Source of the DNA: Moniliella sp. 'wahieum'
Taxonomy: Eukaryota
Direction of reading: 5' to 3'
Length of the DNA stretch: 64,000 nt
NCBI GenBank assembly: GCA_003971905.1
Contig: RSEE01000047.1
Span: 372,001 to 436,000 of the forward strand
A model generated the notes under the pieces. The model searched no databases and was not told where the DNA came from. It worked only from the letters and a program-made list of their open reading frames with translations. Position 1 is the stretch's first letter, and every line of letters begins with the position of its first letter. Shown piece after piece: positions 12,971 to 60,701 of this stretch. The position numbers were made by a program, and so were the translations under genes.

Positions 12971-13536
12971 CTAAGCAAAGGACTGAGCTGCGGCCGAGCA
13001 CGCCTTGAGTTGTTCCAAGTAGTACGCACAGGCGTTCGTGTCGTTGTTGGTCGCCTCAAAGCAGCGCAGCAGATCTAACCGGGCAGACAGTTAGCCATTG
13101 TTATTCGCACGGGCCAATCCACTCCAAATCCAAAGCAATCAGGGGAGCACGTACCTTTGGACTGCGCTTCGCATGCAGCGCCCTTGGTGGCGTCTTGGGC
13201 ATTGTAGCCCTGGGCCCAAGCGGCGGGCTGTTGCTCCTGCTGGGGGGCAGGCGCCGGCTCCGAAGAAGAGGAGCCGCCAAAGAGCATGTTGCTCAGCCCG
13301 TGGCCAACCGTAGACCCGACCGCGACACCGGCGGCGGTGGAGGCCATGTTGGCAAACAGACCGCCGCCGCCCATGCTGGGCTGGGCCATGGGAGGTGGCG
13401 CAGCTGGTGCGGGGCGGGGGGCGGGGCATGGTGCTGCGGGGGCGGGTGGTAGGCCTGGGTAGAGGCGCTGCGGGAGCCCGAGGGCATGCGCGAAGAGGGC
13501 GAGGGGCGAGAGCTGGAGCGGCCGCGCGCGGGGCAT
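12971..13536 (-). CDS. MIX17: Mitochondrial IMS twin-CX9C protein Mix17 (CHCHD2/10 family)
   Basis: GGGLFANMASTAAGVAVGSTVGHG; CEAQSK|DLLRC...NACAYYLEQLKAC; intron ~13076-13153. Confidence 0.92.
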
Positions 13537-13961
13537 GGTGAGTAAGTTGGAGAGTGGAAGGTGGAGAGAGGCGGTGGCGGGGCGGGGCGGGGCGGGGGGG
13601 GTTATATAGGCCAGCGGGGCCACGGACCCTTCTGCTCTCTTTCCGCGCCGGGCTTCTTCCAGCACCTTCGGGCGCTTCGCCTGCCTCATTAACCGCTGCT
13701 GCTCCGGCCGACGTCCACTCGCCGCTGCCTAGTCCCGCCGGCCTGCGCATTACTAATTCCGCTTGCTCCCCCCCGAGCCCCGTGCCCAAGGGGGGTCACG
13801 TGCCCTAGCTGAGGTCAGCACTGTCAGCTCCATTTTTTTCGAGCCATGCTCCGCTCCGGCAGAGGCTATGTTGACATGCTAGCTAGTCGATAGCTAGCCA
13901 GCCACACCGATTGGCTCCCGTGCCGTCCTCACCCTCGCCTGGTTGATCCTCACACCCCACC

Positions 13962-14332
13962 ATGCCCAAAGCTGGCAAGCCACCGTACGTCCCTCCTCCC
14001 GCCCCGCCTGGTTCGGCCTAACCGTCTATTGCCTCTCTTCCTCTCTCTCTCAGGCGCGGAGCGCAAGCAACCTGCGCCCCACCCGATCATCGAGGGCCGA
14101 CGCTGCCCAGGCCGAGGCCCAGCCCAAGCCCAAGCCCACGTCTTCCGAAGCATGGACGAGCAGTGTGCAGCAGGCCAAGAAGAAAGGGGCCAATCGGAAA
14201 CGCGGCTCGCTGTCCTCGGTCGCGGCGCGCGCCAAGCGCGAAAAGGCTCTCGAGCGCCAAGATCGGCTGAACGCCAAGAAGAACAGGAAAGAAACTCGGC
14301 TAGCACGCAACCAGGCGGGACGCGGGGAATGA
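13962..14332 (+). CDS. Small basic protein, possibly Alb1-like ribosome biogenesis factor
   Basis: ATG 13962 (MPKAGKP), intron 13985-14053 with CTAAC branch; Lys/Arg-rich helix AKREKALERQDRLNAKKNRK. 3' end uncertain (GTAAG right after). Confidence 0.55.
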
Positions 14333-14869: not shown

Positions 14870-15940
14870 CGGATTTGCAGAGGACAATGTGCATGCTGCC
14901 AGGAGAAAAGGCTGTTGCGAACTAACCACCGACCATTCCCCAATCGTTTTCCTTGGCTTCCATACACGCCCAGCGTCGGGCCAGAAACGTACGCCACAAA
15001 GCCGGCTTGGCCAGTGTTGCGGAAGAAGGAAGGATAGTTTTTGAACAACACGGTGGTGTTGCCGTTACCAAAACTGATTACTAGCGCTTGGCTGGGCGGG
15101 TCGAGCGAGACAATGTCACATAGTGTACGAGGACTCTGAGGAAACCACAATGTTAATCATCATCCTGGAAGCAACAGGAGACAACGTACCTTGTCTATCG
15201 TGGCTACTCGTTCAACCAAAGCGACAGGATCCTTCGCTTGGAAAGTAAATTCAATCTGTTGCGTCAATGGCTTTTGCCCCCGAGGACGGCGGTCAGGGTG
15301 CACCATGCCATGCTCTAAACTCCAGATGGGCGCACCTGTGACAAAGTCGTCTGGACCTGCTCGCCAGTTTCGACATTATAGATGCGGACTTCTTTCACGG
15401 TCCATCTAGTCCAGCGGTTCAGTGGCTGCAATCCAGCAGGCATAGAAGGGGGGAGGGGTGGCAACGCACCTTGCCAAGAGGGCGGGGCAAACGTATGCCT
15501 CCCCACAGCAAATGGGAACGTGGCGAGTTTGACAAACTGGCCGGGGCGAGGGGAGCGGCCGAACCAGTGTGGTGGGGCAGGTAGGTTTCCAAGCGGTAAA
15601 AGATAGTGCTGGGCCGCGCGTGCCGGGTGCGAGGCGCGAACGCAATGTACCCTTTCGGGTGGGAGAGCTGGAGAGCACGGCTGTGTCCCGCCTGCTTGGG
15701 AGATGGGCGAGGAGGTGTGCACGGGGCCTTAGGCCTTACGACCACCCGTCTTCGATTCATCTACAATCCCGTCGCCGAACAATGCCAGCTGATTGAGTTG
15801 ATCGGACCATCGCCCACGTCCAGGACCGCAGTCATCGATGGCAAAAGGGAACCAAGTATGGATTGGACAAGTAGGCAGCCAGTACAGACGCACTTTTTAC
15901 CAACCGACAACCACGGGCTTTTCGGGCCTAGTACATAGAT
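14870..15940 (-). pseudogene. Degraded beta-propeller-like gene fragment, resembling the C-terminal part of the F-box gene at 52.8 kb
   Basis: Intron 15136-15189 (GTACGT...TTAAC...CTCAG) joins VERVATIDK to SPRTLCDIVSLDPPSQALVISFGNGNTTVLFKNY; VRIYNVET resembles VVVYNVDT of the F-box gene; no clear start or F-box. Ends approximate. Confidence 0.45.
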
Positions 15941-17990
15941 GAAGCAGCTGCAAGCAGTACCGGCGCGCCGCAACGACGCCACGGTGACGCGTTGCGCGAT
16001 ACGACGCGTCACGCGCTCACGCGTCACGCGGCATGCGGCAAGCTTCAAGCACATGCATCATGATGCATGATGCATCATAGCACGTGACGCGTGGCGTGGG
16101 CGTGCAAGATTTCGCCACTTGGAGTACCCGCTGTAACAGTGTTACACTAAATCCAACAAGTGGGGGGAGAGGGGGTTCTCGAAGCAAGCGCACCCCGACT
16201 TGTCGCTGAGACTCAGCAGCCATGCATCGTGCATCATGCATCGTGCATCATGCATCATGGCCGCCCCTCTGAAAAACGAGTGAAGGAGGGTGCCTCGGGA
16301 CGCTCGCTCGCTCGCCCACCCGAAAAAGTTTGTGCGAGAAAAGGGGGGGCTGGGCATGCCAAGGGTACATTTCAAAGGTTGGTAAGGGAATCGAGATCGT
16401 CGATCATCGATCATTAATCAAGCTTCCAGCTTCCAGCTCACCAAGCGGCACGTCCAGGCGAGGGCAGCTCGGGTGTGTGACATGTGACCGGTGAATATGA
16501 ATACGAATGAGGCGCTCGAGGAGGTGGATGAAGTCATCGACCATCCATCTCATCAGCGCCATCAGCGCATCAGCCCTTGCAGGCCCCCTCGCCGTGGCCT
16601 CCTCTCTCCTCCCTCTCTCCTCTGCCCGACTCCCCCGATGTCAAGCACCGATCGCAGCCCTGTTCTCCACTGTTTCTCAGGGGAGGGGCAGAGCCTGCTT
16701 GGTGCATCGCGCCGCCCAAGTTCGACTCGTCAGTCGCTAGTTACCTAGTTACTAGTTAGTAGCACTCTCCGAACGGCCTGGCCCAGCCTAGCCCCCCGGC
16801 CTGGGTGCCTGGCCTGGGGTGCGGCAGGGGCGGCCTTTCCATATCAGCTGAGGCTCAGGCGCTCAGCCTGGTTGAGGCGCTGGCTGCTAAAAAGCTAAGT
16901 AAGCGCTAAGGCTAAGCGCCCACTCTCGGCAACCAAGCTAAGCCATGCTGAGTGCTGTGCTGTGCTGAACTGGGGCTGGATGTGCGTGACGCGTGACGCG
17001 TGACGATGCAGAGTGACTCGGTGACTCGGTGCCGGTGACCGGTGACTAGTGACTAGTGACATTGCCATGCAGGACACCATCCCGTTCGAGGCTGCGCGGT
17101 TCGCATCCGCGTCCAGCCACTTAGCAACTCGTTTTAGTAGCCCGTCGCCGCTCTCGCGCGTCCGCCGCATACAAGTCCCCCGAGCGCCCAGCGCTCTCAA
17201 TGGGAACGTTGCCCATCCGTACAGCGTGCCCATAGCGCTCCTTGCGGGTGGCTGGGCAGCTGCTCTCTAGGCGCTTCCAGTTGCTAGTTACATGTTACAG
17301 GAGCAGCTGGGACCTACCATATATCAAGCTTCTCGCGATTCGACCCCTTGGGCTAGGAAAGCAGGCCAATCTACCAGTAGAGGTTACCACGCACAGACCA
17401 ACCCCCCAGCCAAGGTCCAGAGAAAAGATGGTACGGTACATTCAAACAAACAAATAAGAACCGTCTGAGCGCCAGCGCTCCAGACCAGCAACGAGAGGTA
17501 TATGCTGAGAAAATACGGGGGGACGAGCGGAGAGGAGGGCAGGGCGAGGTACGGCGAGCCAGGCATCCACAAGCTCCACGGGAGCCAGCGAGCGGTCCAA
17601 CGCCCGCCTGGTGAACCGCACCGAGGAAACGGGACGAGTGACGGGTGCCAGGACGGGTGCGAGGGGGCCAGCTCAGGTCAAGGTCATCATGGGCGCATGC
17701 TTGAGACTTGAGAGCCGAGGCACAGCGCCGAGACAGGGCGATCCAATCCAGCGGGGGGGGGGAGACAAAGGACAAAGCGAGGAGTGCGGGAAACGATGGG
17801 AGGAGGGGGGGGGGGATGCGAGACGTATGAAGCAGAGACATGGGGATGCGAGAAAAATGCAGACCGGGGTGAAGGGCGTGCGTGCAGAGGCACGCAGTGA
17901 CCCATGGCGGTCATGGATAAAAACAAGTGGGAGAGCGAGGAACCGAGGCTCAGGGACAGAGCGCAGCGCAACAAGTGACGAGACGAGGCG

Positions 17991-18217
17991 CTAGCTCCGC
18001 ATCGTCCTGCACCGTGCATCGGCCGGATCGCACACGGGCCCCGTGTGCCTCGTCGTTGCGCTGGGGTGCTGGTGCAGGTCGTGCACAGTTTGTTTCGGCA
18101 GCGCAGGCGCGCGGCTAACCGGACGCGCATTGACCAGATCCGCGTCGCAGAAGACACAGATTCCTGTCCGGTGCGCGTCACGTGTCCGCACTCGGCGCAG
18201 ACAGCGTACGTCGTCAT
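17991..18217 (-). CDS. Zinc-finger microprotein A (~75 aa; CX2CX10CX2C after one +1 correction)
   Basis: TATA at 18521-18527, pyrimidine-rich leader, 5'-UTR intron 18224-18317 (GTAAGT...GCTAAC...CCCCAG), ACAACC-ATG. Restoring one G at 18163-18164 gives MTTYAVCAECGHVTRTGQGICVFCDADLVNARP...RCRTMRS*. Confidence 0.7.
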
Positions 18218-18520
18218 GGTTGTCTGGGGCGGAGCAAGGGCAGAGGAGGGTTAGCTGAGCGTGGGGGGAGGAGGCAGACGCGGCCAGAGAGGGCGCGTGC
18301 GGCAAACACCAACTTACGGAGAGGAGGCGGCGGCGGCGGAAAGTGGAACGAGGTGGGCGGGAGAGGGAGAATAGCGCGGTGGGCAAGAGCAAGACGTGCT
18401 GTAGAGGAAGCAGCAGCGTTCAAGGAGCAAGCGGGGGGTGGGCGTAGGAGCGAGCAGGCGCAGAAGCGGTGGGTGGGGGGTGGGGGGGTAGCACAGGCGG
18501 GGGGGCGGGGTGGGGGTGGC

Positions 18521-18527
18521 TATTATA
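18521..18527 (-). promoter_or_regulatory. TATA box of microgene A
   Basis: TATAATA on the minus strand, in a GC-rich context, followed by a C/T-rich leader. Confidence 0.65.
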
Positions 18528-21500
18528 TCCCCGGGCGGGCGTTGAACGTTGAACGTTGAGTCGTTGAACGTTGAACGTAACGGTGACCGGGGCAGGCGCA
18601 GGGCCCCGATTCGGCGCGGTGGCAGCAGCGGGCGATTGGGGCGATGCTGGCCGCTGGCAGCCAAGACTGCCGGCCCAGGCACGCAGGCAGCTCGCCAGTG
18701 CCCACGGCCGGCCACGTTGCCGGCGCGGACACTGCCCCCCTGCCGCGCATTCCGGCCCCCCATTATGCATTAGAGCGAGGCGCCGCCAGCGGGGGGCACC
18801 GCAGCGGGCACCGCAGCCCAGGCGCCGCTGCAGCAGCGCCTGCGCAGGCGCATCGGATGGGTGATCTTAGCATGCCGCGGAGCGCAGTGGCAGTGCGCAG
18901 CGGAACTTGCTCAGGCTCACGCGTCACGCGTCATGCGTTGCCTGGGGGGTGCGCTGGGGAGGTCACCCGTCTGACATGGCAGCGCATGCTGGGGCGGCGT
19001 GGGGCGGGTGGTGCGGCGTGGTGCGGCGTGGTGCAGCGGTGGGGGCGATGCATGGGGCCATAGGGCGCCGCCCGGCAGGACCCCCATGCCAAGAAGCGTC
19101 ATCGATCAGCCATTACTACTTAGTACTTAGTGCCGTACTCGGGGGTGCGTGCATCGCAGTCGTCAGTAACTCAGTACTCAGTTACTCAGTCTGCTGAGCG
19201 TCACAGCCGCTCTCGCACCCTCGCAGCTCGGCCGTCCACGGGCAACCCCCTGAGCTGGGCCTGCGTCATCGACATCGATCATCCGAGTGAGCCACCCATC
19301 GAGTCGTAGCCATCGCAGCCATCGGTGAACCAGCGACATCCATCGCCAGCGCCATGTACCATGGACCAGCCCGCCCCCACTAGGCCAAGCAGGCAAGCAG
19401 GCGCTGCGCAGGGCGTGAGTGCATCAGCGCGCTTGCCTACTCATCATCGCATGCATCTCCATCCATTCCTCCGATCGATGACTGAGCACGGCGCAGTGAA
19501 CATTGCACATTGCACCAACAAACACAACCTGGGCCGGAATGCCAAGGCAAGCCGCTTGCGTGTGCGCAGGCTTAGGGCCGCGGGCACAGCGCCAGTCAAC
19601 CTGGTCAACGGCCATTCGCTCGGCGCGAGCGGTGGGGCGGAGCCTCAGCACGCAGCGCTGCGCGCGCAGCTTCAAGCTTCTAGTGACTACTCGAGTGACC
19701 ACAGTGACTACGACCTACTCCACCTCCTCCTACCTGCCCCGATGAGGATGCGCTCTCGTTTGCCACAGTAGCCGCCCCAGCATGGCGCCGCACACGACAA
19801 CCCCACTCCACATCAAAAAGTGGGGAACGCAAAAGCCGAGAGACGAGAGCAGTCGACCTGCGAGGGGGCCCTCCCCCCGCCCGCGACAGAAGCAATGAAG
19901 CACAGAGAGCGAGAATCAGGGGCTCCTGCCCAAGTCGTATGCTCCGAATGTGGTGCTCACCACCATGACCGAAGTGGAGTAAGGATTGCACACATGGTGG
20001 GGATGTGGCCCTGCTCGTTTCCCCAGCTCAGCACTCACATAACTCACAACTCGCATGTCTTCACAGAGCTGTCCAAACGTGAGCCCCTCCTCTCTGTCGG
20101 GGCTCCGCGCGCATCCACATCCCGCATCACGTCACCGGCGTCACGGCTATCCTATCGTGCTCGTCATGGCGCTGTCCCTTGCGAGGGGTGGAGCAGGACG
20201 TATATAATAGCTCAAGTATATACCCCGGCCCCGCTGCAATGCTCCACCGGCCGCCACATGTCTGTCGTATTCTATGTACGTGCCCCCGCAATGAGAGGAC
20301 CTAGATTTTAACGCGGTACCCCGTGGTCGGATGGCCATGCCCCGATCCACACTAACAAGTTGGCTCAAGTGTGGAGCCTAGATAGACACTGAGATCGGAG
20401 AAGCGAAGCCTGGGAAACTCCTACAGGTGTTGTAAGGAAGAAAAGCAAAACGACGTCGTCTCGCCATGGTATTAGAGCCCCGGGCAACAACATTCAATCC
20501 ACTACGCCACGGAGTGGGGCTGTTGGAGCACACATGCGCATGGACGCACATATGCTGCGGGGTGCGGGAGGTGGGGGAGAGTGGAGACACACAAAGGAAC
20601 GTCTCCTCTCTCCGCATTGGCTCCCAGATCTCACTACCTGCGCGCCGTAGCACTTTTGGGATCGATGACTAGTGACTAGTGACTGCGGTGCGTGCGCCTC
20701 AGCCTCTCAGGAGAAGCGTTCAAGTTGGAACGTTGAGGCGTTGGGCCAGCAGAGGGCGGTAAAGATCCCCTTTGCCCCACCTAGTCAGTAAGGTAGTTTG
20801 GGCTTTGGATTGACTTCGCTGGGAGACTACCAACGGAGGAGCGGCGACTGCTCCACAACTATAATAAAAAGCTTCTTACGCGCGTCGCGTTAATTTTGAG
20901 TCAGTACCGGCGCCGGCCGACGGGCTCCGAAAAATTGCCACTTTTCCCCCCCCGCTCCGCCGACACCCGGCGTAGACAGCAACTCCGAGAGCAAGTTATC
21001 GAGGCATGCCGACAGCCGGCCGTGAGATCTGAGACGCGTGAGAGTCTGTGAGAGCTTAAGGAAGCGAGTCATTAATAGAAGGCTCTCGCATAGTGCTCTT
21101 CCTCATAGCACCGCCATTCTTCCACAGGTCTTCTTCGTTTTGGGACGTATAGCGCCGTAGCGTGCATCCATCACTAGCTTCACTACAGAACAACAGTCCA
21201 ACGGATCTCAACACCACTGGCTCGGACATCTGTGCTGGAAGGCACATGCCCGCGTTGTGGTACCCGTGATACGTGTTCAAACCTCGAGTTATAACGCAGT
21301 GTGGGGATATGCAGGACACCCCACGTGGCACCAAGTGGAACCCCGTTGTTTCGGAGGGAGACTTGGTCGTGTTTAGTACGGACTAGAAGTGACTATAGTG
21401 ACAATGTTGACGATATAGTGACTATATAGGAACTGCGGCCGACGAAGGAAAGCGGTGCGCCGCGGAGCGGGACCGGCAAGCTGTGCTCTCTCGCCAGCTG

Positions 21501-22573
21501 CGTCGTTCTCCTGCCCCACACACGCTCCAACTAGGCGCTCGCAGGTTCCACACTCTGTCTTGTTGATTATAAAAAATTTACCGTGCAGAAGACTGTGCGT
21601 GTTTAACGTGCCCGTGTGCGCTCTTCCCTCAGGCCTCAGGCCTCATTCAAGAGGTCCCAGACCGGCATCAGACCTCAGCCTCAGACCTCAGCCTCAGACC
21701 TCAGTACTCAGTCCTCACCAGGCTGAGGGCTTCGGTCTCATTTACCCGTCCCATATGGTCTTTTGCTGTCTCTGCGTAAAGATCGAACGAGGCCGCACAC
21801 TGGCTCGGGAAGGATCTGCCGGCTGAATTTCTTCGCTCCGGACGAGGTTCCACGTCCATGATGCATGCGTTGCATCTGCTCATCTTCGTACTCCTTTAGC
21901 CCAGCCCTTTTCTCATCAAAGAGATCCGTTCATCTTCTCCGGCCTCAGGCGGGCGTCCTGCTTTCTTTCCCGTTAAAAACCAGTCCGCCCTCCTTTTGTG
22001 GCATGTGAGGTACCTCTGACCTTCAGTTGTTGGGACAGGACTTCAGAAGAAATTATATGCACATCCTATACTCATTGATTGGCTTTGAACCGTCCTTCTC
22101 CTCAGACCACAGCCGTCCTGCAGCCACGTTCACCTCTGCCCCGCATTTGTTCTCTAGAAACGGAACCGAGTCAAGGATCGCGTCTCAGCTCTTCCTATAG
22201 TGTGAGCGCTGGACTAACGCTCGTTCTTCATCTTTTCGAGTGAACGTCCAGTATGCGGTGGGTGTTACTAATACCCCCCCCGCGCGCGCGTTGTCCGTCC
22301 TCCCAGTGCCTTCTTTTCTTTCCCAGGTTATGCACCATGTCGCGTCGCGGCCCTGCCGGTAGTGCGTTCTCACTTATAGTGAAGACGGTGATATATGCTA
22401 TTAGATAATGCTTTTTTGGGGGGTGCAGGAAGGATATAACCAAACACCGTTTTTGCTGCCTAGTAACGATTCACGAAATGCGTCCCCTGTAAGTAATGTT
22501 TAGAGAGGTGAGGAACCAGGGCGTGCGTACAAGGCAGAGAGGATGAGTAGGGCAGAAAGGCAAACTCTTTGAA

Positions 22574-22807
22574 TCAGCTCATCCCTACTGCTTCCCTCCT
22601 CACTTCTCCATACAACAAAGCTCTCTGTGAGTGGGGCGAGGCAAAAGAGGGGGCGTATAGCACGTGGTCTCCTGTATAACCAGGGGGAGCTCCAAATAAG
22701 CACTGGGAACTACACGACAGGGGGGCAGGGTATTCTGAACGGCTTGATGAGGGGACAGGGGCAGCGAGACTCAACAGAGAAAAAGGGAGAAAGAAAGAGA
22801 AATGCAT
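22574..22807 (-). CDS. Candidate small secreted peptide (77 aa)
   Basis: MHFSFFLPFSLLSLA|APVP signal-like N-terminus; no recognised homology; could be a chance translation of a pyrimidine tract. Confidence 0.3.
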   Translation of the reverse strand: MHFSFFLPFSLLSLAAPVPSSSRSEYPAPLSCSSQCLFGAPPGYTGDHVLYAPSFASPHSQRALLYGEVRREAVGMS

Positions 22808-25800
22808 GCCGAACGAACTGCACAGGTTAATACACAACTCTTCAGGCACACAGCCCCCCAGATGTACAATCTGCCCTTGTTACTTCCTTGGGCATGGTAG
22901 CGAGGAATTGGACCGTGTGCCAAGTCGAGATGGCGTTGTGAGGCAAATAAATGTACACAAAAAACGGCTACGTACAACCCATCCAGGTCGCCTCCAGGAG
23001 GTTCTGCTTCCCATCCGAGAAAGGAGCAAAACCGTGTTCATCGAATGCGCTGCATGGCCGACGACCAATATACCAAAAACATCCGGCCGCGCCCGCGATC
23101 GTGAGATGGAGACGGTACCGATCGAGGACAATCCAGGATCTAGAACCCCCGCCACCAACGTTGGTGGGTGGGCTCTCAGAACTCAGAACCCACTCATGCT
23201 CAGAAACCCCGAAGAGTGGGGACAGGCGGGATGGCCTGTGCCATCGCCAGCGGGGATCCCCAGGATGGACAATATACCCGTCGGATAATAAGCTACCCAC
23301 AATAATAAGATTCACGGCGTGTGGGGTATAGGAAGCTATGAAGCTTATTGAAGAAAACAACCTGTTTCACTATGGCATCTCTCTTGTTTGCAGACGAGAC
23401 AAGAGCCCAGCGCGGGCAAGACACGGGCGCATTGGTGCACGCACCCTATGTAGTTCCTGCCCTGCGATCGCGCATGGCGGGGCGGATTGTTTGCTTTTAC
23501 AAGGTACACCCGCGGCTGGCTGTGGCGTGGCTCCTATTTTTTCCAGGGTACGTATACACACATCGCGCACCGAATCCATGCCGAGATCATGCGATCATGC
23601 TATGCCAGCTATTATATGCCCCTGTGTGTGTGTGCTGTACTAAATTACCCCCACCGTCATCGACGGGGCTGCTGCCGCGACCATCAAATGCATCCTACTC
23701 GTTGCACGCCGCGAGACCCCCCTATCCTGGTATCTCGATACCTTCGCCATACAGACGGTAGCCTTCGTATTTGATCCGCGATCAGAAAAATTGTCCTCGT
23801 AAATTAAGGAGCCATGACCCACGGCTTTTTCATTTACTCTCCCTAAGAGCATCACAGTGGGACCACGTGCCTACCAAGTGGAGCGCAGCTGTGGTTTTAT
23901 GATTCGATCTCTCGTCTATACACTACGGTCGATGCCCTTTCCCCTGGCCTAGGCCGGATCGGCGCTTGGGCAAGGTGAGATCTGTCCTCTGCTCTATGGG
24001 CTGCCTGAAACCTGCTGAGGGCCCGAGGGCTTGCCATGCATTGCATCATGTGGTGCCCGGGAGCAAGCCAGTCTCACCGACAGACAAACAAATGGCAGTG
24101 AATCGGAATCGGAATCGGAGCGTTCGAGACAACGGAAGAGGCATGTGTGGGGTAATTGAACTGTTGGGAGCATGCGTTACGCATTACAGAGCCAGCCTTC
24201 AGTTCTCCAACTATATATACGTTCACGTCTATGATGAAGCATGAAGAATTAATGAAGCTTGAAGATAGAACACGATGAGGCGGGTCGGCACAATCGGACT
24301 TTTCCACGGGGTCTCTTGAACGTTGCGCCTGGCCACGAGTTCCGTGGGAGAGTGTCTCCATGAGATGACCTCTGCAATGGACGCTTGGGGGAACATAAAC
24401 ACTGGATAGTGCTTTGCTGTAGTCGTCGGGCAGAGCCAGGCAGCGTCCCAGAAGGAAGGGAGGTTTTTCACACACACACGTTATTCATATGGGCCCGTGC
24501 GCCGGACCATCATGAAAGTGGGGAGCGCCGATGATCGAGGAAGGGAGAGCGAACTGTTGATTGAAAAGGTGGTTCTTATAGAGTGGAGTGTCTCAAAGAA
24601 GGGGAAAGAGGGGAAAGAAATGCTGGCCAGCTTATTGGCCATCACCATTTGGGATGTATAAGAACAGAGGCAGGTTCTATTCATGAGGAGAGAAGATGAA
24701 AGACCAACAGGTTTACAGTGTAAAGTGGAAAGGAGTCGGAGGGACGAAGTGAGGACCAAGGACGAAAGGCACACGAGGCGAGACGAGGCGAGGGTCAAGG
24801 ACATGAATCATCTCTCACGAAAGTATACACAGGCTCTCAGATATGAAAAAAGAGACCAATACAACCCTTTTAGTGTGCAACAGCTAATGTGCACCACAAT
24901 ATTGGCTGAGGTATATGTTTGCATCACTCGTAGTGCGCGCCCCTCCCCTTCCTAACATCAAAAGAATGTTTTACGGGCTGGGACTATAGACGTCAATCAT
25001 GGCTGTTGCGCTCATATGAACGCTATGAACATCCATGGCTGCATTACTTCTTTTCGCGTCTAAATCCACTGAACATGTACGCTTGGACCTGTGGGACGTG
25101 GGCCAAGAGTCTATCAGGTACGGCCGAGGGTGCTGTCACTGGTGTGCGTTTCCTTTTTGTTCACATCTCTTTTCTCATATCCTGCTTCGAATGAATTCTA
25201 CAGGAAAATGCGCGCACGGAGAATATAGTACAACGATTGTGTGAATTACGAGTTTCTTGATCTGTGTGCGTCCTGTCCTCTGGTGGTCGCTGGGTGAGGC
25301 TCTTCCCTCGGCCTGCCCTTTTATTGTTTGTGCCTTTTCGCTATCATTTTCCCCATCTCCATCTCTTGTTAATCTGTACCTTCTGCATCTTCATCATTAT
25401 GCATACACAAAGGATCACGATAACAAACTGCTTTCTCTCTCCGCCATACAACTCACGTCTGCTCTGAGGCCAAAATGAAGCATAGTGACGATAGCCTCAT
25501 GACGCCCTGAAGAGGCCTTGGATAGTAGTAGTAGTAGTGATGGTGGTGGTCTAAAGGCGAACCAACGAGAGACACCTAATACAAACAGCAACAAGCGATT
25601 TCCAGCACGATGGATACGGAACAACAAGAGGAAAAACAACAGAAGAGCGGAGGGAAAACATATACTTCCATCAAGCTGCATCATGCATGCTGATGTACAT
25701 AATGTACACCGAAGGCGGAAGAGACCATGTGCTGGGGGCACAAGAGACTAGTATAAGAGAGACTAATATCAACTTTTTTCTTCAAAAGAGCTGAGGGAGA

Positions 25801-26423
25801 ATAACCTGTAGTTCATCTTGGCAGTTGGGCCATACGTAGACTAGGTGGGGCTAGGCCCGAGCCTACTAGGGCCATAGCTTAGCGCTAAGGTTTAGCCCTG
25901 TTCACATGATCATACTTAGAGCGTATAGCCTGCCTCGTGCCACTTGTCGTCCGTCACGTTTTCCAAAGATGGGCCAATACCCGCATCAATACCCTTTTCT
26001 GCGTGCTTTGGGCTGAAGCCCCCTAAAATATAGAAGCCCGCCATCCGCGCGTGCACCACGCGCCGAGAAGTGTGTATACTAACAGCGCAGTTCTCCCACA
26101 CAGGCTATATACCACGGTAGGAACTTGCAGGAACTTGCACTTTTGAATGGGAACACTGAAGGAAACTGAAAGTAAGCACACCGTACACCCCCCCCTGGTG
26201 GGAGAGAGAGGATGCTATGCAAATGACACCACCGGACCTCTCCCCAGCCCTCGGGGAGCCTCGGAGCCTCCGCTTCAAATCTGGTAATAAGGACTGGATC
26301 ATGCATATGTCATGCCATCTCTCAATCTTGCACACCGGTTGTGAGTTTGTGCCAGACTTTTTGCTAGGCGGTGTGTCAGGCAGTGAAGAGCTTGGGGAAA
26401 TTGGGGTGTTCCAGTGGTGTCCC

Positions 26424-27600
26424 TTCAAGCTTCAAAAGCTTCAGTGCAAGTGTGAAATAATACCCCCTGCGTGCTCGCGCGCGCTCGCGGCGTTTTCTGC
26501 ATGACGTGTGTGCTAGATGGCGCAAACGTCGCGTGTGTTGAACTTGAAGCTTGAAGCTTGAAGCTTGAAGCTGTGAGAAGTTTCATCGCGTCTCTCGATG
26601 GATGTCCGATGGGCCCGGCGAGGAATGGAGATGGGCATGGGCAAAAGAAAATGTGCAGTGCAGCTTCTTTTGAAGCCGCAGTTCGCAGCAGCGCCGGCTC
26701 GCAGTTGCGTACCATCAGCTCGAGAGTGAGTGACACAAGTGACTAGTGAAGCTAGTGACTAGTGACAGGTCCGCTATTATTAGGCTCTTGGAGGACCATG
26801 TTCCAGTTGTTTAGCTCCCGAGACTGCTGCGTAGTCCGAGGGTCTACTATAGGCGCTATTACCACGATGCCAACTCACCGGTACTTACCCCTCCCCTCCC
26901 CTCCTCCACACTCGCGTCCCTGCCATCCAACGCTATCGCGGCGTTGGATGTTGCAACGGTTCACCGTTCCGCCTCAGCGTCCCCAACGTCTCATCTCCAC
27001 CGCCTCATCTCCACCGTCTTTTGGCCCTTGTTTTCCGCAGCCGCAGCCGCAGACAAGCACAATTGACGATGGAGGCCGATGCACGATGCTTCTCGGGGCG
27101 GCAGCGACGTGGTGACGGATGATCGATGATTAATGATTCACCCCCGTCACCTGGAAGCTTTTTGAAGGTACCAAGGTACTAAGGCTTGAAGCTTGAACAG
27201 CTTTGGACGCGGAGCTGGCGAACGATGGGCGAAGCAGCACAATGGCATGGTGGGCGCTCATCTCGTCTTGGGCAACAATTATGAATCAACGTTCAACGCT
27301 CAACCGTGGGATTAGGAGCTGCGGCGCGACGGGGCGGGGCAGGGAGGCGGTGTGGGGTATGGCACCTTCCCAATCGCACAGCACCCCTTCTCTCGTGGGA
27401 TTGCCACGTACCCTCTGCTACTAGTACAATCCACGCCGTGTAGATTTGTGGTGCCGAAAACGAAAACGGAACCGGCGCGAGCTGCCGTACGGCCGCAGCC
27501 CTGCCTGCCCCCCCTTTCCGTTTGGCAACCCCCGCACTCCACAGCGCCACACCCCCACAGCCGAGAGCTGCGTTGAGCAGCTGCGCGCTGAGCCTGCGCC
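26424..27600. repeat. Right field of period-7 (TGA/TCA + 4-nt palindrome) arrays
   Basis: TGA-AGCT x4 (~26545-26572), TGA-CTAG-TGA (26740, 26756), TGA-TCGA-TGA-TTAA-TGA (27120), TCA-ACGT-TCA (27286). Confidence 0.9.
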
Positions 27601-27826
27601 CTGGGGTAGTCATAGTCATACTCGACGGTTCTTGGCGCCAATACGCAGTGTCCAACGCGTTGTGCCGCGGAGGGCGCTTTGTGCCGCGGAGGGCGCTGGG
27701 TGCTGAGCGCTCGCTGAGGCAGTAGCGCCGACAGCTCAGCCTGGCGCCATCGCAGCACAGCGTCAGTGTCAGGCGCAGTGCTGTGCACCGTCCCCCCTCC
27801 CTCCCCCGGACTTGGCCCCGCGAGTG

Positions 27827-27832
27827 TATAAA
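27827..27832 (+). promoter_or_regulatory. TATA box of microgene B
   Basis: TATAAA followed by a C/T-rich leader. Confidence 0.7.
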
Positions 27833-28041
27833 GGCGCTCCTAGCGCCCCCTCCTTCTCCATTCTCTTTGTCTGTCCCTGGCACGATCCGCCTCTCCTTTG
27901 TTGAGTGCTTTCCCACCGCCGTCCACCCCTGGCTGTCTCCTTCGCTCCCCACTTCGACACACGCGTGCCCTCTGCGCCCCACCCACTCAACCCACATCCC
28001 ATCCCATCCCCCCGAGAACCAGCCCCTCCTGCAGCTCAACC

Positions 28042-28230
28042 ATGTCTGGCGGCGTTCAGCTCCGGTGCCCAAACTGCAACTACAATGTGAGTTACTACTG
28101 GGAGCGGTGCAAGAACTGCGGCTTTTTCCTCGCTTGCCGCCCCGGTGCTCCCGATAACGGTCCCCTTTGGCCCCATCGCCATCTGGATGACCTCTCCTCG
28201 GCCTTGTCACGCGAGACGAAGCATTGCTGA
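28042..28230 (+). CDS. Zinc-finger microprotein B (62 aa; CX2CX10CX2C)
   Basis: Intact ORF MSGGVQLRCPNCNYNVSYYWERCKNCGFFLACRPG...RETKHC*; TATAAA upstream; TCCTGCAG acceptor followed by CTCAACC-ATG. Confidence 0.8.
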   Translation: MSGGVQLRCPNCNYNVSYYWERCKNCGFFLACRPGAPDNGPLWPHRHLDDLSSALSRETKHC

Positions 28231-28833
28231 ACAAGCCCCCTCGCACGCCCCCCCCTTCCGCCCTCGATCCACATCCTCTCAACTTCCTGCATTCACCCAA
28301 GGCTGGACCTTGAATCAAGACATTAGGATGGCTTGCTATCCAACCTTGTTCCTCCTGATCGATGATCCCTCTCCAGGCAACCCTTCCATCCGCACTCGCC
28401 ACGCTGCCCCACCGCGTGCGCTTACGCATTCGCCCCTCGGGGCACCAGTCTTCCCGCCATTTTCTTCCCACTCTCTCCCCTTTCCCAGCTCCTCTTTTTC
28501 TATATCCCTGTGTGCACCACAGGGTCATACCATATTGGCATTGGCGTTAGTGCTGTTCCTCAGGCGTGGCCTTCTCCCTCCCCTCCTCCTGATCGTTGTT
28601 CCGTCTTCCCTCGCATCTGCATTGGTGTCTGCACACCCCACTGTACCTATGTATCACCATGGCACCTTGCCTCTGCAGCAGGCTTCATCTGGAGCTCCCG
28701 CAGAAATGATTGTATTCGTGCCGGTCATGCGTGCCATCAAAACAAACCTTCCTTCTGCTCTGCAGGGGGAGGGGAAGGGCGTAGAAGGATAATACAGTAG
28801 CAAGATGAGGAATATGGATGCGAACGGTGCGGA

Positions 28834-30109: not shown

Positions 30110-32767
30110 ATGAGCCACGGGTTCTTCTTCTTCTCCCGCTCGCCCTCCACCTCCCTTCCCCGCCGCTTGCTCAGCACCTTCGCCACAGCCATGAGTGCTG
30201 CCCAGCCGCCCTGGCTGCGCCCGCACGCGCCCGCGCCGGTGCCCGTGCCGCTGCGTATGCAGAACAGCCTGACGCGCTCCAAGGACGTCTTTGTCCCCGT
30301 CCGCCCTGATGGCGTCGTGACGTGGTACAATTGCGGGCCGACGGTGTACGATGCGTCGCACATGGGCCATGCACGCAACTATGTGACCCAGGACATTATC
30401 CGCTCCGCATCCTCCGTGACTATTTTGGCTTTGATGTGCACTTTGCCATGAACATCACTGACATTGACGACAAGATCATCCTGCGTGCCCGCCAACAGTT
30501 CCTCCTCACGGAAAACCGTACCGCCCAGCCGACGCTTTCCCCGGCCCTGCTGGACCAGGTCCAGCGCGCGACCGATGCCTACACGCTCACCCACCTTGCC
30601 GCCTGGACCACACCGCCGCCGCACGAGTCGACACTCGATCCCGAAGCCATCTTCGAAGCCGTCCGTACCGCCCATGCCGCCCACGAGCAGAGCCCAGGCC
30701 AAACGCCCCTGACCAAGCCGGACGGCACCCCAGCCAACGCCGAGAGCAGCGCCAAGCTCAAGATGCACCTGACCGCTGTCCAGTCGGCGCGCGATGGCTT
30801 GTTGGCAGCCAAGCTGGCGCCAGCAGGGAGGATGCCAGTGCGCTGCACACGGCGGCGGGGGATGTGTTGGCGCCGTACTTGGATGCGGCCAAGGGGGCAA
30901 GCGTGACGGATCCTGCGATTTTCCGCGCCTTGGCTGCCCGGTGGGAAGCGGCATTTTTCCACGACATGGCGCGGCTCAATGTGGAGCGTCCGACGACCCT
31001 GACCCGGGTCAGCGAGTACGTGCCGGAAATCGTGTCGTTTGTGGAGCGGATTGTAGAGCGCGGGTTTGGCTATGCCGACGCAGCGGGCAATGTGTGGTTT
31101 GATGTGCGTGCGTTTGATGGGGCGGCGGTGGACCCCGTGGCGCAGGCGCAGGTCGAAGGCCAAGCGCAAGGCGCATCGTGCCAACACACACAGTGCACCG
31201 CGTTGCACCACGTGTACGCCAAGTTGGCTCCGGCGAGCAAGACGGATTCGGCGCTGCTTGCCGAGGGCGAGGCAGTCTGTCGGTGGGCGCGGCGCAGACC
31301 CGGGGCAAGAAGAGTGCAGCTGACTTTGCGCTGTGGAAGAGCAGCAAGCCCGGCGAACCGGCGTGGCCGTCGCCCTGGGGTCCTGGCCGGCCAGGATGGC
31401 ACATTGAGTGCAGTGTCATGGCCAGTGCGGTGTTTGGTGCGAAAATTGACATTCATTCCGGTGGGGAAGACCTCAAGTTCCCGCACCACGACAATGAGCT
31501 GGCGCAAAGCGAGGCGTACCACGGCACGTACCAGTGGATCAACTATTTCCTCCACACGGGCCACCTGCACATCGAAGGCGCCAAGATGTCCAAGTCGCTC
31601 AAGAACTTTATCTCGGTCGACGATGCCTTGGCCCAGTACAGCCCTCGCCAATTGCGTCTCGCGTTCCTCTTCCAGCCGTGGGACCGCAGGATGGACTTTA
31701 GTGCCAAGGCGATTGATGAGGTGCGCCGGTTCGAGGCCGCGACCGATAACTTGTTCCGTACTGTGCGCGCGCGTGTCTTGGCAGCGCAGCAGGCGGCCGG
31801 GTCGGACGCCACAGCGCAGGCCCAAGCGCTCGACCCTCCCCTCCCCACCAGCGGGAGAGCATCACACATGGCTACACACACCGCGAAAGTAGCTTGGCAG
31901 CCGCACTGGGTCGCACCCAGCATGCCGTGCGCCTCGCGTTGGCGGACAACTTTGATACGCCACTCGCGCTGCGTTTGGTCCGCGACTTGATTGGCGAGAC
32001 CAACGTGTACCTCGACAGTGGCAGCAAGCCCAACCTGCCCGTGGGGGTGCACGTGCACATGCCCACGCTGCTGTCGGTCGTGCACTGGATGACCCATCTC
32101 TTCTCCATCTTGGGCCTCACCTACCCGTCCCCCACCGAGACGTTTGGCTGGGGCGTTGCGACGGCACCGACGCGCGCCGACGGCGCGACGAGCGGAAACG
32201 ACTCGGCCTCCGCCTCTGCATCCACATCAACGGTCGATAAAGAACAGCTGGTCGCGCCGTACGTGACGCTGCTGTCGCAGTTCCGGGACGAGGTGCGTGC
32301 GCTGGCGCGCACGACGGAGCCAGCCGCCTTGCCAAAGCAACTGCTGGCGCTGTGCGACCGGGTACGAGACGATGGCCGTCTGGACGAGCTGGGGGTGACG
32401 TTGGAGGACAGCACGACGGGTCCGGCGTTGGTCAAGTTTGTGCCGCCGGCCGAGCTGGGCGGCGCGCGTGGCGCGCGAGCAGGCGGCGCAGGACAAAGTC
32501 GCGCGGAAACAGGCTGCGCAACAGGCCGCGCGAGCCAAACAGTTGGCTCTCTGGCAAAAAGGTCGTACGCCCCCAGCTGACTTGTTCCGCTCCGCCCCCG
32601 ATGCCAGCACCAAGTATGCCACGTACGACGACCAGGGCATCCCGCTCACCGATGCCCAGGGCGAAGCCTTGTCCAAGTCGCGCCGCAAGGCGCTCGATAA
32701 AGAGTTCAAGGCCCAGGTCCGGCTCCACCAAAGTTTCCTCGAGGCGCAGAAGGCCGGCGAGATCTAA
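30110..32767 (+). CDS. CRS1: Cysteinyl-tRNA synthetase, probably dual cytosolic/mitochondrial
   Basis: [71 protein letters not shown]; second ATG at 30191; several frameshifts. Confidence 0.97.
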
Positions 32768-32951: not shown

Positions 32952-35900
32952 TTAGCTGGGGATGCTGGTGTGGTAAAACCGCTTGGCCTCGTCCAGCCGC
33001 GCGGCCTGGACCACGGCCCACTCTTGGCGCAAGCGCGGCAGCAGCCGAGCCAGCTTGCCCGGCTCGATGCGCTGCACGCGCACATCAAACTGGCTCGACA
33101 CGGGGCGGTGGTCCGAGATGCTAGTGGGCCAGAGCGGTAGCTATGGCCCTGCACCGACTGCGGTTGCGGCCGCAACGCCGGCTCGCGAGCAGGAACGGGC
33201 GCCAAGGTCGCACCTAGCACCTGCCCCACCAGCTCGTCATCTGCCGCGTCCTGCTCGCGCACGCACTTGGACGGAAACGTCGCCCCAGCATCGCACCACA
33301 GGATCCGATCGCACCACGCCGGCACACGTTGCTTGCTCGACGTGTCGTACTCGCACGACAGGTGGTTGTACTTGTACGTCGGCGCAAACCCGATGGGCGC
33401 TTCGACAAACCCGCGCAGCGCAAAACTCGCATTGCTACAAGTTTGGCTGCTCAACTGGTCCACATCATGAAGTGCGGCGAGATTGCCTGTGTGCAGGTAC
33501 CCCAGCGCCTCGTCCCGCGTAAGGTCGATCCGATCTACCACACGCGATCCCTCGATGTTAGCGCTACATTTGTCGTTCACCACGGGCGAAAGCGTAAAGA
33601 GCAAAGAAAAGGGACAAGGGACAAGGGGAAGGGGGAAGAGGGAAGGGGGAAAGGGCAAGGCACACAGTTCAGATCGCCGCTCCAAAAGACAATGTCGTGA
33701 TCCAAGATTTGCTCGCCGTCGCCGCCGCGGGTAAAGGCGAGGGTGTGACGGAGGGCCGGGGGGATGGGTCCGGGGGCAGTGTGAGGTCCGGGCGGGAGCG
33801 TGCTGGCGGCTGCAGCACTTTGGGGGAGTTTGGGTGCGGTGAGAATGGTAGCGGCGTCCATGTTGCGCGCTTGGACGTGGCGTTGGCCAGCGGCCAAATG
33901 ACAATTGACAAAGCACAAGCTAGTATCGTCGAGCACGACGCGCGCTGCCACCGCGCCCTTGTTGCCGTACCGACCTCCAAAGCCCGTCTTGACAGTGCCC
34001 ACTGCCGCTTCGGACAACGTGCCGGCCCGAATCTCTTGCACCGAGATAAACACGCACGTCATCAGGCCCACTAGCAACTCGGACTGCACCAGCTCGTACT
34101 TGCCCTGCCCAAACGTGTCGGCGACAGCGGCGATGAGCGCGGTGCGCCAGGCAGCATATTGGTGCGAGATGCGGTCGCCCACGTCGTTGCCCACGGGTTT
34201 CTTGGTCGTCGACTTCTTGCCCAACAAGACTTTTCGCTGTCAACCGCTTGTCTTCCAGATCAATCAGTTCCTGCAACCCAAACACAATCACCTCGGGGCC
34301 AACCGGCTTGATTGACTCCGTGGCACGCGTCGTCATCGTTACCGGCGGCGCGTGGCCAGCACTTCGAAGAAGGTCCTGTAGAAATTCGCGGTTCTCCGGT
34401 TCGCCCTTGGGACGTTGGAGAAGCAGTGGATCGGCCGCATCGACATTGTACGTCACATGGAGCGTGCGGATGGTGCGCGAGCTAGCCACGTGCGGCAAGG
34501 AGCGGCCAATGCGACGCTCAAACCAATCGTGCGTCAACAGCCCATCCCACACCCTCACCGCCCCGTCCATCCCGCCGCTCACGACCTGCAGCCGACCCAG
34601 CGCAATGGCATCGGGGTCCGTTACGAGTCGTGTAACGGGGTTGCCGCCATGCGCCACCCAGGATTTGACCACCACCAACCGACATGCCGGCGTGCGCTCT
34701 TTCTGCTCCGCCAGGCCAAACACCAAGATCTTGCCCCCCTTTGTCCCGGCCCAGAGGTACCGTCCGGCAGCCGTCATGCACAGGATCGCATCCAACGCGT
34801 TCTGGTGCACCGCCACACACTGGTACGACGTGCGGGACCATTCGGAGATCTGACGGTGGGCCAGTTAGTAGGGTCCAGTCAGTAGGGTGTCTCATGGAAA
34901 ACTAGGGATAAAGGACCTGCAGGAGACAGGAGACAAGAGAAAAAAGGGCCAAGGGAGAGGCGAACTTACATGGCCTGTCGTGTGCGAGATGAAGACGGTG
35001 GCAGGGGAGCAGGGCACCGTGGCTGCCGCCGTGGCTGGGCCGATCATCACCCCGCCACGACAGAAGGCAAGCGGGGAGGTGCTGGCAGCGCCTTGGCCGG
35101 ATCGTCATCGGTACTGGCAAGGGCGTCAAGATCTGCAGGCGAATGTCGTGCAGGTTGGGGGTATTGGGGGTAAAGGCAGGCGTGTGGTCTTCCGCGCCAT
35201 GAAATGCCAGGTCGGCCGCACGGCGCAAACTTTTACGGATTGAGCGGTGGAGGAATGTTTGTGGCGGTGACCCGATCCTTGCGCCGTACTGCCAGGCTCC
35301 GACGCATGGTATGCGCCCAACGTCGCCCCCCCGTTGCCACCCACAACTGATTGCCCACCAACAGCGGCACAACATGTTTCCCCTCGACGGGGAACTCCTG
35401 GATGACAGGGGTGGTGATGAGCATGCGGGTGGAAGGGGTCCGATCGAAACTCTTCTCGGCAGACGGCTTGTCCGTCAGTCCGCCAGAGGGGCGGGAGGAT
35501 GGGAGGCTGGCTACCTCCTCCTTATCCTGCGTCTGCTCGGTGCTACCCCGGGCAGACGCCGTTTTGTCTCCCAATCCCAACGAAGAGCGCGGTGGGGCAC
35601 TGGCCGAATTGTCTCCGCTGGCCCGCCCCGGCGACCAGATGGACATTTTGCCTCCCTCGTCCACAACCAGGATGCGATCGCCCAAGCGGGAGATGCGGAC
35701 AATCGCCACATTGTGCACGCCACGGTTGAGCGCCGTACGCACCTCCTTGACCACATCCAGCTCCCACAGCATCCCGCTCGTCGTGCCCACCCATGCATGC
35801 CGAGCACTTTCCTCCGTCCCCGTGGGCCGTAGGAAGCACAGCGCCGTCACACGACCCTGCAGCGCAAGGTCCGGGTCTTGGATCGTAGCTACCTTCTCGG

Positions 35901-51436: not shown

Positions 51437-51531
51437 TGCTTCAAAGGGGAATCGAACCCCTGTCACATCGATGTCTCACAGGCACTAGGGCTGTCTGGCA
51501 ACGATGTAGTATACCACTAACCCATTGAAGC
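51437..51531 (-). tRNA. tRNA-Gly(GCC) with 24-nt intron
   Basis: Acceptor stem GCTTCAA/TTGAAGC, anticodon arm CATCG-TTGCCA[intron]T-CGATG, T-arm AGGGG-TTCGATT-CCCCT, followed by TTTT. Confidence 0.93.
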
Positions 51532-56160: not shown

Positions 56161-56252
56161 GGGGTCCGCCCGGGATCGAACCGAGGACCACCTCTACGAG
56201 AAAGCGGATGCGCTGACCCTAAAGAGGCATGATACCACTACACCACGAACCC
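56161..56252 (-). tRNA. tRNA-Pro(AGG) with 20-nt intron
   Basis: GGGTTCG...CGGACCC acceptor stem, CCTCT-TTAGGG[intron]T-AGAGG, GGTTCGATCCC T-arm, oligo-T terminator. Confidence 0.93.
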
Positions 56253-60601: not shown

Positions 60602-60701
60602 TGATCGAACCCGGGATCGAACCGGGGACCTTACGCGTCTCAACGAGACCTGTTGCTCCAGGATGTGAAGCGTACGTCATGACCAGCTAGACCATCCGAC
60701 C
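60602..60701 (-). tRNA. tRNA-Val(CAC) with 26-nt intron
   Basis: GGTCGGA...TTCGATC acceptor stem, TACGC-TTCACA[intron]C-GCGTA, CCCGG-TTCGATC-CCGGG T-arm, oligo-T terminator. Confidence 0.93.

Follow-up and report, generated by a model that had tools for sequence, protein, structure and literature searches.

A Candidate Orphan Short Gene for a Single Zinc Ribbon, and an Unestablished Second ORF, beside a Long Non-Coding Interval of a Fungal Contig

The Locus

The stretch of DNA considered here (the window) is 64 kb of contig RSEE01000047.1, positions 372,001 to 436,000, from an assembly deposited as Moniliella sp. 'wahieum' (GCA_003971905.1), and all coordinates below are counted from its first base. 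Two short open reading frames (ORFs), ORF A on the minus strand and ORF B on the plus strand, lie on either side of a long non-coding interval and read away from it. An earlier note on this DNA had taken them as a divergent pair of related zinc-finger microgenes under one shared regulatory region. In the analysis described here, ORF B is a plausible orphan short gene for one generic zinc ribbon, located at a promoter-like unit; ORF A is unestablished, and no family is recognized. This reading is tentative, and its probability is put at roughly 0.4. The features on which it is built are as follows.

27656-27703, plus strand: 2.2 copies of a 19-bp unit (CGCTTTGTGCCGCGGAGGG), ~130 nt before the B TATA box
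27827..27832, plus strand: TATAAA, 215 nt upstream of the B ATG
27833..28041, plus strand: putative leader of B, free of ATG, 209 nt long and 72% pyrimidine
28042..28230, plus strand: ORF B, intact from ATG to TGA, 62 codons plus stop; its ATG is the first downstream of the TATA box and stands in the CAACCATG context
28066..28119, plus strand: zinc-ribbon core of B, CPNC-X10-CKNC, then G; the sole in-frame CX2C-X8-14-CX2C in the six frames of the window
18521..18527, minus strand: TATAATA, 310 nt upstream of the A ATG and 12 nt below a heptamer array
18224..18317, minus strand: intron-like signal in the A leader, with GTAAGT at 18317, CTAAC at 18254, and CAG
17991..18217, minus strand: ORF A as first defined, 227 nt, not a multiple of 3; ATG at 18217
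18147..18199, minus strand: CxxC knuckles TGCGCCGAGTGC and TGTGTCTTCTGC of A, their first bases 41 nt apart

Most of the architecture that the earlier note had described was found again. A TATA element is present at both loci, both leaders are free of ATG and rich in pyrimidines (that of A, below TATAATA, is 303 nt long and 75% pyrimidine), both ORFs begin in the shared CAACC-ATG context, with CAACCATG at each, and the DNA downstream of both is also pyrimidine-rich (0.70 and 0.69). By our own reading, CC precedes the ATG in 5 of 7 likely starts of real genes here. The proposed splice acceptors were borne out to different degrees. In the A leader the intron-like signal GTAAGT ... CTAAC ... CAG is complete, and the CAG ends 6 nt before the ATG context; patterns of this kind occur 31 times in the window, four of them between 13.8 and 28.9 kb. 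At B, where the start reads CAG-CTCAACC-ATG, there is indeed an AG after a pyrimidine tract, 7 nt ahead of CAACCATG, but no canonical GTRNGT donor is found between the TATA box and this AG. In the preferred reading, two promoter-like segments point away from the interval. In each, a TATA element is followed by a pyrimidine-rich leader without ATG and then by a first ATG in the CAACCATG context; the one on the right opens ORF B, which is read as a plausible lineage-restricted (orphan) short gene.

ORF B and Its Zinc-Ribbon Motif

The description of ORF B in the earlier note, 62 residues with CPNC-NYNVSYYWER-CKNC at 28042-28230 on the plus strand, is exact. Generic zinc ribbons have four cysteines in a CPxC and a CxxCG knuckle, and B carries both (CPNC ... 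CKNCG); the Pfam gathering threshold for such a ribbon is not reached. B matches DZR (PF12773) with 21-21.8 bits (E=2.2e-4 to 3.7e-4), for which the cut-off is 27.3, and there are weak matches to Zn_ribbon_15, Zn_ribbon_3 and Zn_Ribbon_1 (E 0.026-0.068), the last of which (PF13240) gives 13.4 bits against a cut-off of 25. The spacing of the cysteines had been assigned earlier to RanBP2/NZF fingers, with the remark that the usual W-x-C start is missing. The remark is correct, with no Trp in LRCPNCNYNV of B or in AVCAECGHV of A, and the assignment has to be given up: no zf-RanBP (PF00641) match was found at E<=0.1 for the ORF holding B or for either frame of A, and the best Pfam matches are the sub-threshold generic zinc ribbons.

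Codon usage was scored with a model trained on 2249 codons of Pfam-aligned genes. In its calibration, 60-codon chunks of coding sequence score 0.34 +/- 0.14; off-frame chunks lie at -0.39, and their 95th percentile is 0.005. ORF B scores 0.086, above that percentile, and ranks sixth among the 185 ATG-initiated ORFs of 50-90 codons; the ORF in second place is a real gene with an LSM domain and can be taken as a positive control. Residues 1-33 of B, with a GC content of 0.42, 0.48 and 0.79 at the first, second and third codon positions, have a difference between third and second positions (GC3-GC2) of 0.31, which is coding-like, as genes here show 0.34 +/- 0.10.

An exhaustive HMMER search with B against 1.84 billion representatives gave 8 matches at E<=1e-3, and not one of them reached E<=1e-10. 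Each lies inside query residues 3-49, and all but one inside 3-35; by reading of their sequences, six of the eight are proteins of CPxC...CxxCG repeats and two are of low complexity. A zinc-ribbon profile was made of 15 repeats from 6 of these matches, and the 46.2 bits that B scores on it are discounted because the test is circular, the matches having been selected by B. The best ESM Atlas neighbors of B are zinc-ribbon clusters (score 0.88, 140 of 256 features shared); they are no more than a lead and tell nothing that Pfam does not. AlphaFold2, run on B as a single sequence, gave a model too poor to be informative, with a mean predicted local distance difference test (pLDDT) value of 46.8 and every residue below 70. 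Full-text literature searches found no paper on fungal zinc-ribbon microproteins.

It was also asked if B is the first exon of a longer gene, and this was rejected. Up to ~28.9 kb, where a convergent minus-strand gene lies, no downstream frame shows coding potential, no usable donor follows the ribbon, and the GTGAGT within B would destroy the motif if used. If the unit is transcribed, scanning ribosomes would be expected to start at the B ATG. In the resulting 62-residue peptide, residues ~9-26 would fold into one Cys4 zinc ribbon of the generic kind (CPxC...CxxCG), the remainder would be a low-complexity and probably disordered tail, and the module may act as a small unit that binds nucleic acid or protein.

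Several observations weigh against B being a gene of this kind. All of its Pfam scores fall under the curated cut-offs. The coding-like stretch is short, about 20-30 codons, and its core has a log-likelihood ratio (LLR) of 10.1 in a maximal-segment scan for codon usage, vs 20-214 for known genes; residues 34-62 are not coding-like (GC3-GC2 = 0.11). No homologue of B of any length was found by HMMER among the 1.84 billion representatives, and none among predicted proteins of 34-109 aa. Short ORFs are seldom annotated. The sole metagenome locus obtained for B (>597 pattern matches) was rejected as a chance occurrence of the word NYNVSYYW in a 605-codon ORF; the matched stretch has no cysteine, and the contig reads as bacterial. 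The DNA around B is also poor in stop codons, and ahead of the ATG the B frame has no stop for 66 codons. A longer open frame runs antisense to B.

27293-28546, minus strand: stop-free frame antisense to B, 417 codons, Gly/Arg-rich, meaningless

This frame is an artefact, because the purine-rich strand has few T for stop codons. As it illustrates, ORF length is uninformative in the flanks of A and B. Finally, the criteria for the motif were set after the ORF had been seen, and the features that A and B have in common (the Kozak 8-mer, the TATA element, a heptamer described below and the N-terminal knuckles) count as an argument that A could be real as well.

ORF A and the Question of a Pair

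ORF A had been described as a second CX2CX10CX2C ORF. Its first CxxC is there, but the second CxxC and the stop at 17991 belong to another frame. As assembled, the ORF reads MTTYAVCAECGHVTRTGQESVSS... and includes ...CAECGHVTRTGQESVSS..., with no second CxxC at X10. The first bases of the two knuckles are 41 nt apart, and the knuckles are therefore out of frame by one base. The frame of the A ATG does not stop at 17991; the TAG at 17993-17991 belongs to the other frame. Since ICVFC and this TAG lie in a different frame from the start, zinc finger A exists only after a hypothetical 1-nt insertion, across which it would read CAECG ... CVFCD; the extra base would have to fall in the GG or AA run at 18160-18167. 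In its assembled form, ORF A does not encode a zinc finger. It could have arisen by chance, as a first-ATG ORF in pyrimidine-rich DNA with few stops; it could be a copy that has decayed; or it could be a gene that a deletion in the assembly has broken.

If the last of these holds, A and B may be real and related, that is, divergent genes for stand-alone zinc-ribbon microproteins, of which A has lost one base in the assembly, and the interval may be a large regulatory region that both share. We consider this unlikely. What speaks for it, first, is the matching architecture described above, together with N-terminal CxxC-X10-CxxC in both ORFs once one base is added to A, giving products of 62 and 75 aa. 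Second, the quality of the assembly makes such a loss of a base conceivable. Abutting frame changes were counted in seven conserved genes, and 10 were found in 14.8 kb, or ~1 per 1.5 kb, at the following places.

30397, 30819-30828, 31271, 34230-34247, 38458-38466: abutting frame changes in conserved genes
49607-49613, 50134-50140, 57823-57826, 58308-58317, 59727-59729: abutting frame changes in conserved genes

The genes hit are those for CysRS, a sulfate permease, ThrRS, an Exo_endo_phos2-family protein and eIF2B-epsilon. Seven of the ten changes require one added base, so that one-base deletions are the commonest assembly error, as had been claimed. This rate, made up mostly of missing bases, suggests an assembly of long reads that was left unpolished and carries deletion errors. 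Third, the GC3-GC2 value of A rises from -0.02 as assembled to 0.17-0.22 in the corrected frame. The missing base itself, however, is hypothetical.

The two ORFs share only the cysteines and one Leu, with no detectable similarity beyond them, which weakens the earlier reading as a microprotein family. Neither frame of A has a Pfam match, and its codon usage is not coding-like, with a score of -0.225 for the assembled frame and of -0.065 for the other; no segment of A reaches 7 in the maximal-segment scan. When A is read through with X at the break, it scores 0.1 bits on the zinc-ribbon profile, and 22% of decoys with the same Cys skeleton score as well or better, so that the read-through product has no zinc-ribbon features beyond its cysteines. 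No homologues of the second-frame piece were found among predicted proteins of 31-100 aa.

One further point in favor of a pair is a heptamer that occurs in an array upstream of both ORFs, in inverted orientation.

18540..18578, minus strand: heptamer TCAACGT, 5.4 copies (CGTTGAA on the plus strand), 12 nt above the A TATA
27286..27305, plus strand: the same heptamer, ~2.7 copies, inverted with respect to the A-side array, ~740 nt upstream of the B ATG and ~520 nt above the B TATA

TCAACGT forms no array elsewhere in the window, and TCAACGTTCAACG, with up to 2 mismatches, is in excess, with 9 matches vs 1.3 expected, 7 of the 9 at these two sites. On the other side, the arrays lie at unlike distances from the two starts (~-320 and ~-740 nt), and only that of A adjoins its TATA element. 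Arrays of a few recurring heptamers are frequent across the whole tract, and a shared motif is not rare among them; the TCAACGT array is therefore weak evidence. When the two flanks were aligned against each other, only the heptamers and low-complexity CT-rich matches came out (best E=0.003), and thus an inverted duplication is not detectable.

Expectations by Chance

The cysteine pattern in question is simple, and the numbers to be expected by chance were obtained from Markov-2 simulations of the 64-kb window. The in-frame motif CX2C-X8-14-CX2C is observed once in six frames, in B, vs 1.26 and 1.15 expected. With a Met required within 12 residues upstream, it occurs 0.16 times per simulated window. 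An ORF like B, with the Met at most 12 aa upstream and at least 50 codons, appears in 8% of simulated windows, or in 2% if CP or CG is also required. Motif pairs separated by a frameshift number 5, the knuckles of A being one of them, vs 2.5-2.8 expected. Frameshift-tolerant ORFs like A (Met upstream, at least 50 codons combined) appear in 28% of simulated windows, and the real window has two, A itself and one inside the eIF2B-epsilon gene at 38258-38032. The start context CAACCATG is found 4 times vs 2.8 expected. Taken singly, the features of A and B are near chance.

These numbers bring in a possibility that we regard as real though still doubtful, namely that neither ORF is a gene. A and B would be chance first-ATG ORFs in pyrimidine-rich, stop-poor non-coding DNA, their cysteines a coincidence noticed afterwards, and the DNA around them would consist of promoters or leaders of non-coding transcripts or would be untranscribed. 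The chance level of the bare motif and of CAACCATG, the frequency of A-like ORFs, including the second one inside a gene for eIF2B-epsilon, the want of homologues and of similarity between A and B, the decoy-like score of the read-through A, and the non-coding-like codon usage of A and of the B tail are all consistent with it. It accounts less well for three things. When the simulations use the composition of the flanks, ORFs of these two kinds seldom arise (0.003 B-like and 0.0067 A-like ones for each 2.2 kb of sense strand); the knuckles of B are typical CPxC / CxxCG ones, and its first half is coding-like; and no other ATG comes between the TATA element and the start of either ORF, the two starts having the same 8-mer context. 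The criteria being post hoc, the co-occurrence of A and B is suggestive, not proof.

The flanks are also unusual independently of any ORF, which again speaks against chance. No other 300-bp stretches of the window have so strong a purine/pyrimidine skew, and in both flanks it points outward. Two ~1-kb segments, 17600-18500 and 27750-28700, are ~70-75% pyrimidine on the outward-reading strand and lie symmetrically about the interval; the skew extends beyond the short ORFs on either side.

The Gene-Free Tract

18218..28041: non-coding interval, intergenic-type composition, many 7-bp tandem arrays

The ~9.8-kb interval was said to be non-coding and bracketed by the two ORFs. The first part holds, since no recognizable coding sequence was found, but the ORFs do not bracket the gene-free tract. 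The stop-to-stop ORFs of at least 60 aa that overlap 18.3-27.9 kb number 98, none of which reaches a Pfam cut-off: 89 have no match at E<=0.1, eight have one weak match each (E 0.031-0.092), and the remaining one is the ORF holding B. The top codon-LLR segment inside the interval scores 12.6, compared with the 20-214 of known genes, and no Rfam match was found in the interval at E<=1. Its GC content of 0.47-0.57 is as in other intergenic DNA of the window. To the left of A, low coding potential continues to ~15.2 kb and weakly to 13.8 kb; A thus sits within the gene-free tract and not at its edge, which also counts against A and B as a pair around a shared region. In the preferred reading, the interval is ordinary non-coding DNA of unusual length, in a genome of Ustilaginomycotina that is otherwise dense in genes.

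The best coding-like segments of the tract lie in its left part.

14096-14284, plus strand: LLR 18.6, a Lys/Ala/Arg-rich stretch, no Pfam match
14962-15117, minus strand: LLR 13.7, the start of a 368-codon open frame, no Pfam match

These two may be orphan genes or genes broken by frameshifts.

Tandem arrays with a period of 7 are concentrated in the tract. Between 13800 and 28900, 16 of 58 arrays have this period, vs 6 of 60 in the other 48.9 kb, and several heptamers recur at more than one site there (TTGAAGC at 6, GCGTGAC at 4, GTGACTA at 3, TGATGCA/CATGCAT at 3 and CGTTGAA at 2). They could be homotypic clusters of binding sites, which would suit a regulatory role of the interval for A and B, or they could reflect a slippage habit of the non-coding DNA here. 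A more far-reaching picture, in which a divergent pair of Cys4 microproteins (A broken by an assembly deletion) in a Georgefischeriales-like fungus is tied to a 9-13 kb cis-regulatory or non-coding-RNA locus packed with TCAACGT, GTGACTA, TTGAAGC, GCGTGAC and CATGCAT arrays, is a speculation to which we give a low probability.

The symmetry of the locus might also have a structural origin. It could mark a centromere, the two ends of a large mobile element now decayed, or a region of mating type (pheromone/receptor). An ORF-free tract of >9 kb with a lower GC content (0.47-0.57) is exceptional at ~1 gene per 2 kb, and the inverted heptamer arrays stand at its borders. Malassezia centromere cores are reported as <1 kb and 78% AT (PMC7025860). 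No AT-rich core is present here; the lowest GC content over 200 bp is 0.43, no lower than in other intergenic DNA, and the interval has no signature of repeat-induced point mutation (RIP). A short regional centromere of the Malassezia type and a RIP-degraded transposon or repeat are thereby ruled out. None of the 98 ORFs matches a transposase, reverse transcriptase or STE3 model, and the inverted match amounts to just 22-24 nt of heptamer repeat between flanks that are otherwise unaligned. A mating-type locus was rejected, with no plausible CaaX pheromone-like ORF, no ACAAAGGGA element and no STE3 match in the interval, and so was a telomerase RNA, with no telomerase-template-like 9-mer. A structural origin is, on these grounds, very improbable.

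Genomic Setting

The window is fungal and gene-dense, with ~1 gene per 2 kb. Pfam confirms an aminotransferase, V-ATPase subunit d, a UBC-type E2 (UQ_con), CysRS, eIF2B-epsilon, TCP-1 and ThrRS, and further an Exo_endo_phos2-family (endonuclease/exonuclease/phosphatase) protein, an LSM protein, and HCO3- and sulfate transporters. For V-ATPase d, the best named match is that of Tilletiaria anomala at 78% identity, and counterparts in two further assemblies are 95-96% identical. On these identities, the host is therefore placed in Ustilaginomycotina, near Georgefischeriales, in agreement with the subphylum-level placement made earlier. Of the labels given earlier to the genes flanking the two ORFs, UBC and CysRS are confirmed by Pfam, but 'C8orf82-like' and 'MIX17' are not: the two minus-strand exons at 29.1-30.2 kb have no Pfam match, and 13075-13728 has only a sub-threshold match to DUF2076.

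A few other features of the window are listed for completeness.

51437-51531, minus strand: Rfam tRNA match, 95 nt, likely intron-containing, missed by ARAGORN
60602-60701, minus strand: Rfam tRNA match, 100 nt, likely intron-containing, missed by ARAGORN
56161-56252, minus strand: odd tRNA called by ARAGORN, with a 4-base anticodon
61713-61919, plus strand: ORF of 68 aa with a codon-usage score of 0.378, the highest among the short ATG-ORFs of the window, no Pfam match; probably an exon of a real gene

What the Locus May Mean

If B is real, it would be an unannotated fungal microprotein consisting of little more than one zinc ribbon. Microproteins of one ribbon are well known in archaea, bacteria and phages, and to our knowledge they are hardly described in fungi. 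If the pair were real as well, there would be a large regulatory locus of an undescribed kind, built around microproteins, in a little-studied relative of the smuts. The analysis offers no evidence for a family, for membership in RanBP2/NZF, or for regulation of A and B by the interval. What the case mainly shows is that a four-cysteine pattern is near chance level in GC-rich, stop-poor DNA, and that a frameshift 'corrected' without reads cannot carry the claim of a family. The gene-free tract with its heptamer arrays is a more solid and less expected observation than ORFs A and B.

Comparison with Known Zinc-Binding Systems

The motif of RanBP2/NZF fingers is W-x-C-x2-C-x3-N-x6-C-x2-C. The spacing CX2C-X10-CX2C is shared by B as it is, and by A only after the hypothetical 1-nt insertion. 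In contrast to these fingers (PF00641), the Trp two residues before the first Cys is absent (L-R-C in B, A-V-C in A), and there is no Asn at the conserved spacer position. Rpb12/RPABC4 and Spt4 are small eukaryotic zinc-ribbon subunits of <110 aa in which a Cys4 ribbon is the main fold. They differ from B in being universally conserved and in their spacers, and no Rpb12- or Spt4-type relative of B was found among the 1.84 billion representatives.

The nearest resemblance is to the generic zinc-ribbon domains, which are common in small bacterial and phage proteins. The host of B is a fungus, all scores of B lie under the curated cut-offs, the matches cover only ~25 residues, and B has neither repeats of the ribbon nor a detectable orthologue; A has no match at all. 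Generic ribbons (PF12773 DZR, PF13240 Zn_Ribbon_1, PF13248 Zn_ribbon_3) have, like B, two CxxC knuckles ~10 residues apart in the form CPxC + CxxCG, stand like the ribbon of B at the N-terminus of proteins of <100 aa, and are the best neighbors of B in Pfam, HMMER and the Atlas alike. A further comparison is with Brz of Halobacterium salinarum, a small protein that is reportedly little more than one Cys4 finger. It is an archaeal protein with no sequence relationship to B, but like B it comes from an intergenic region. Brz is described as a stand-alone zinc-finger small protein with CPxCG knuckles that acts as a regulator, as shown by deletion (PMC2253796).

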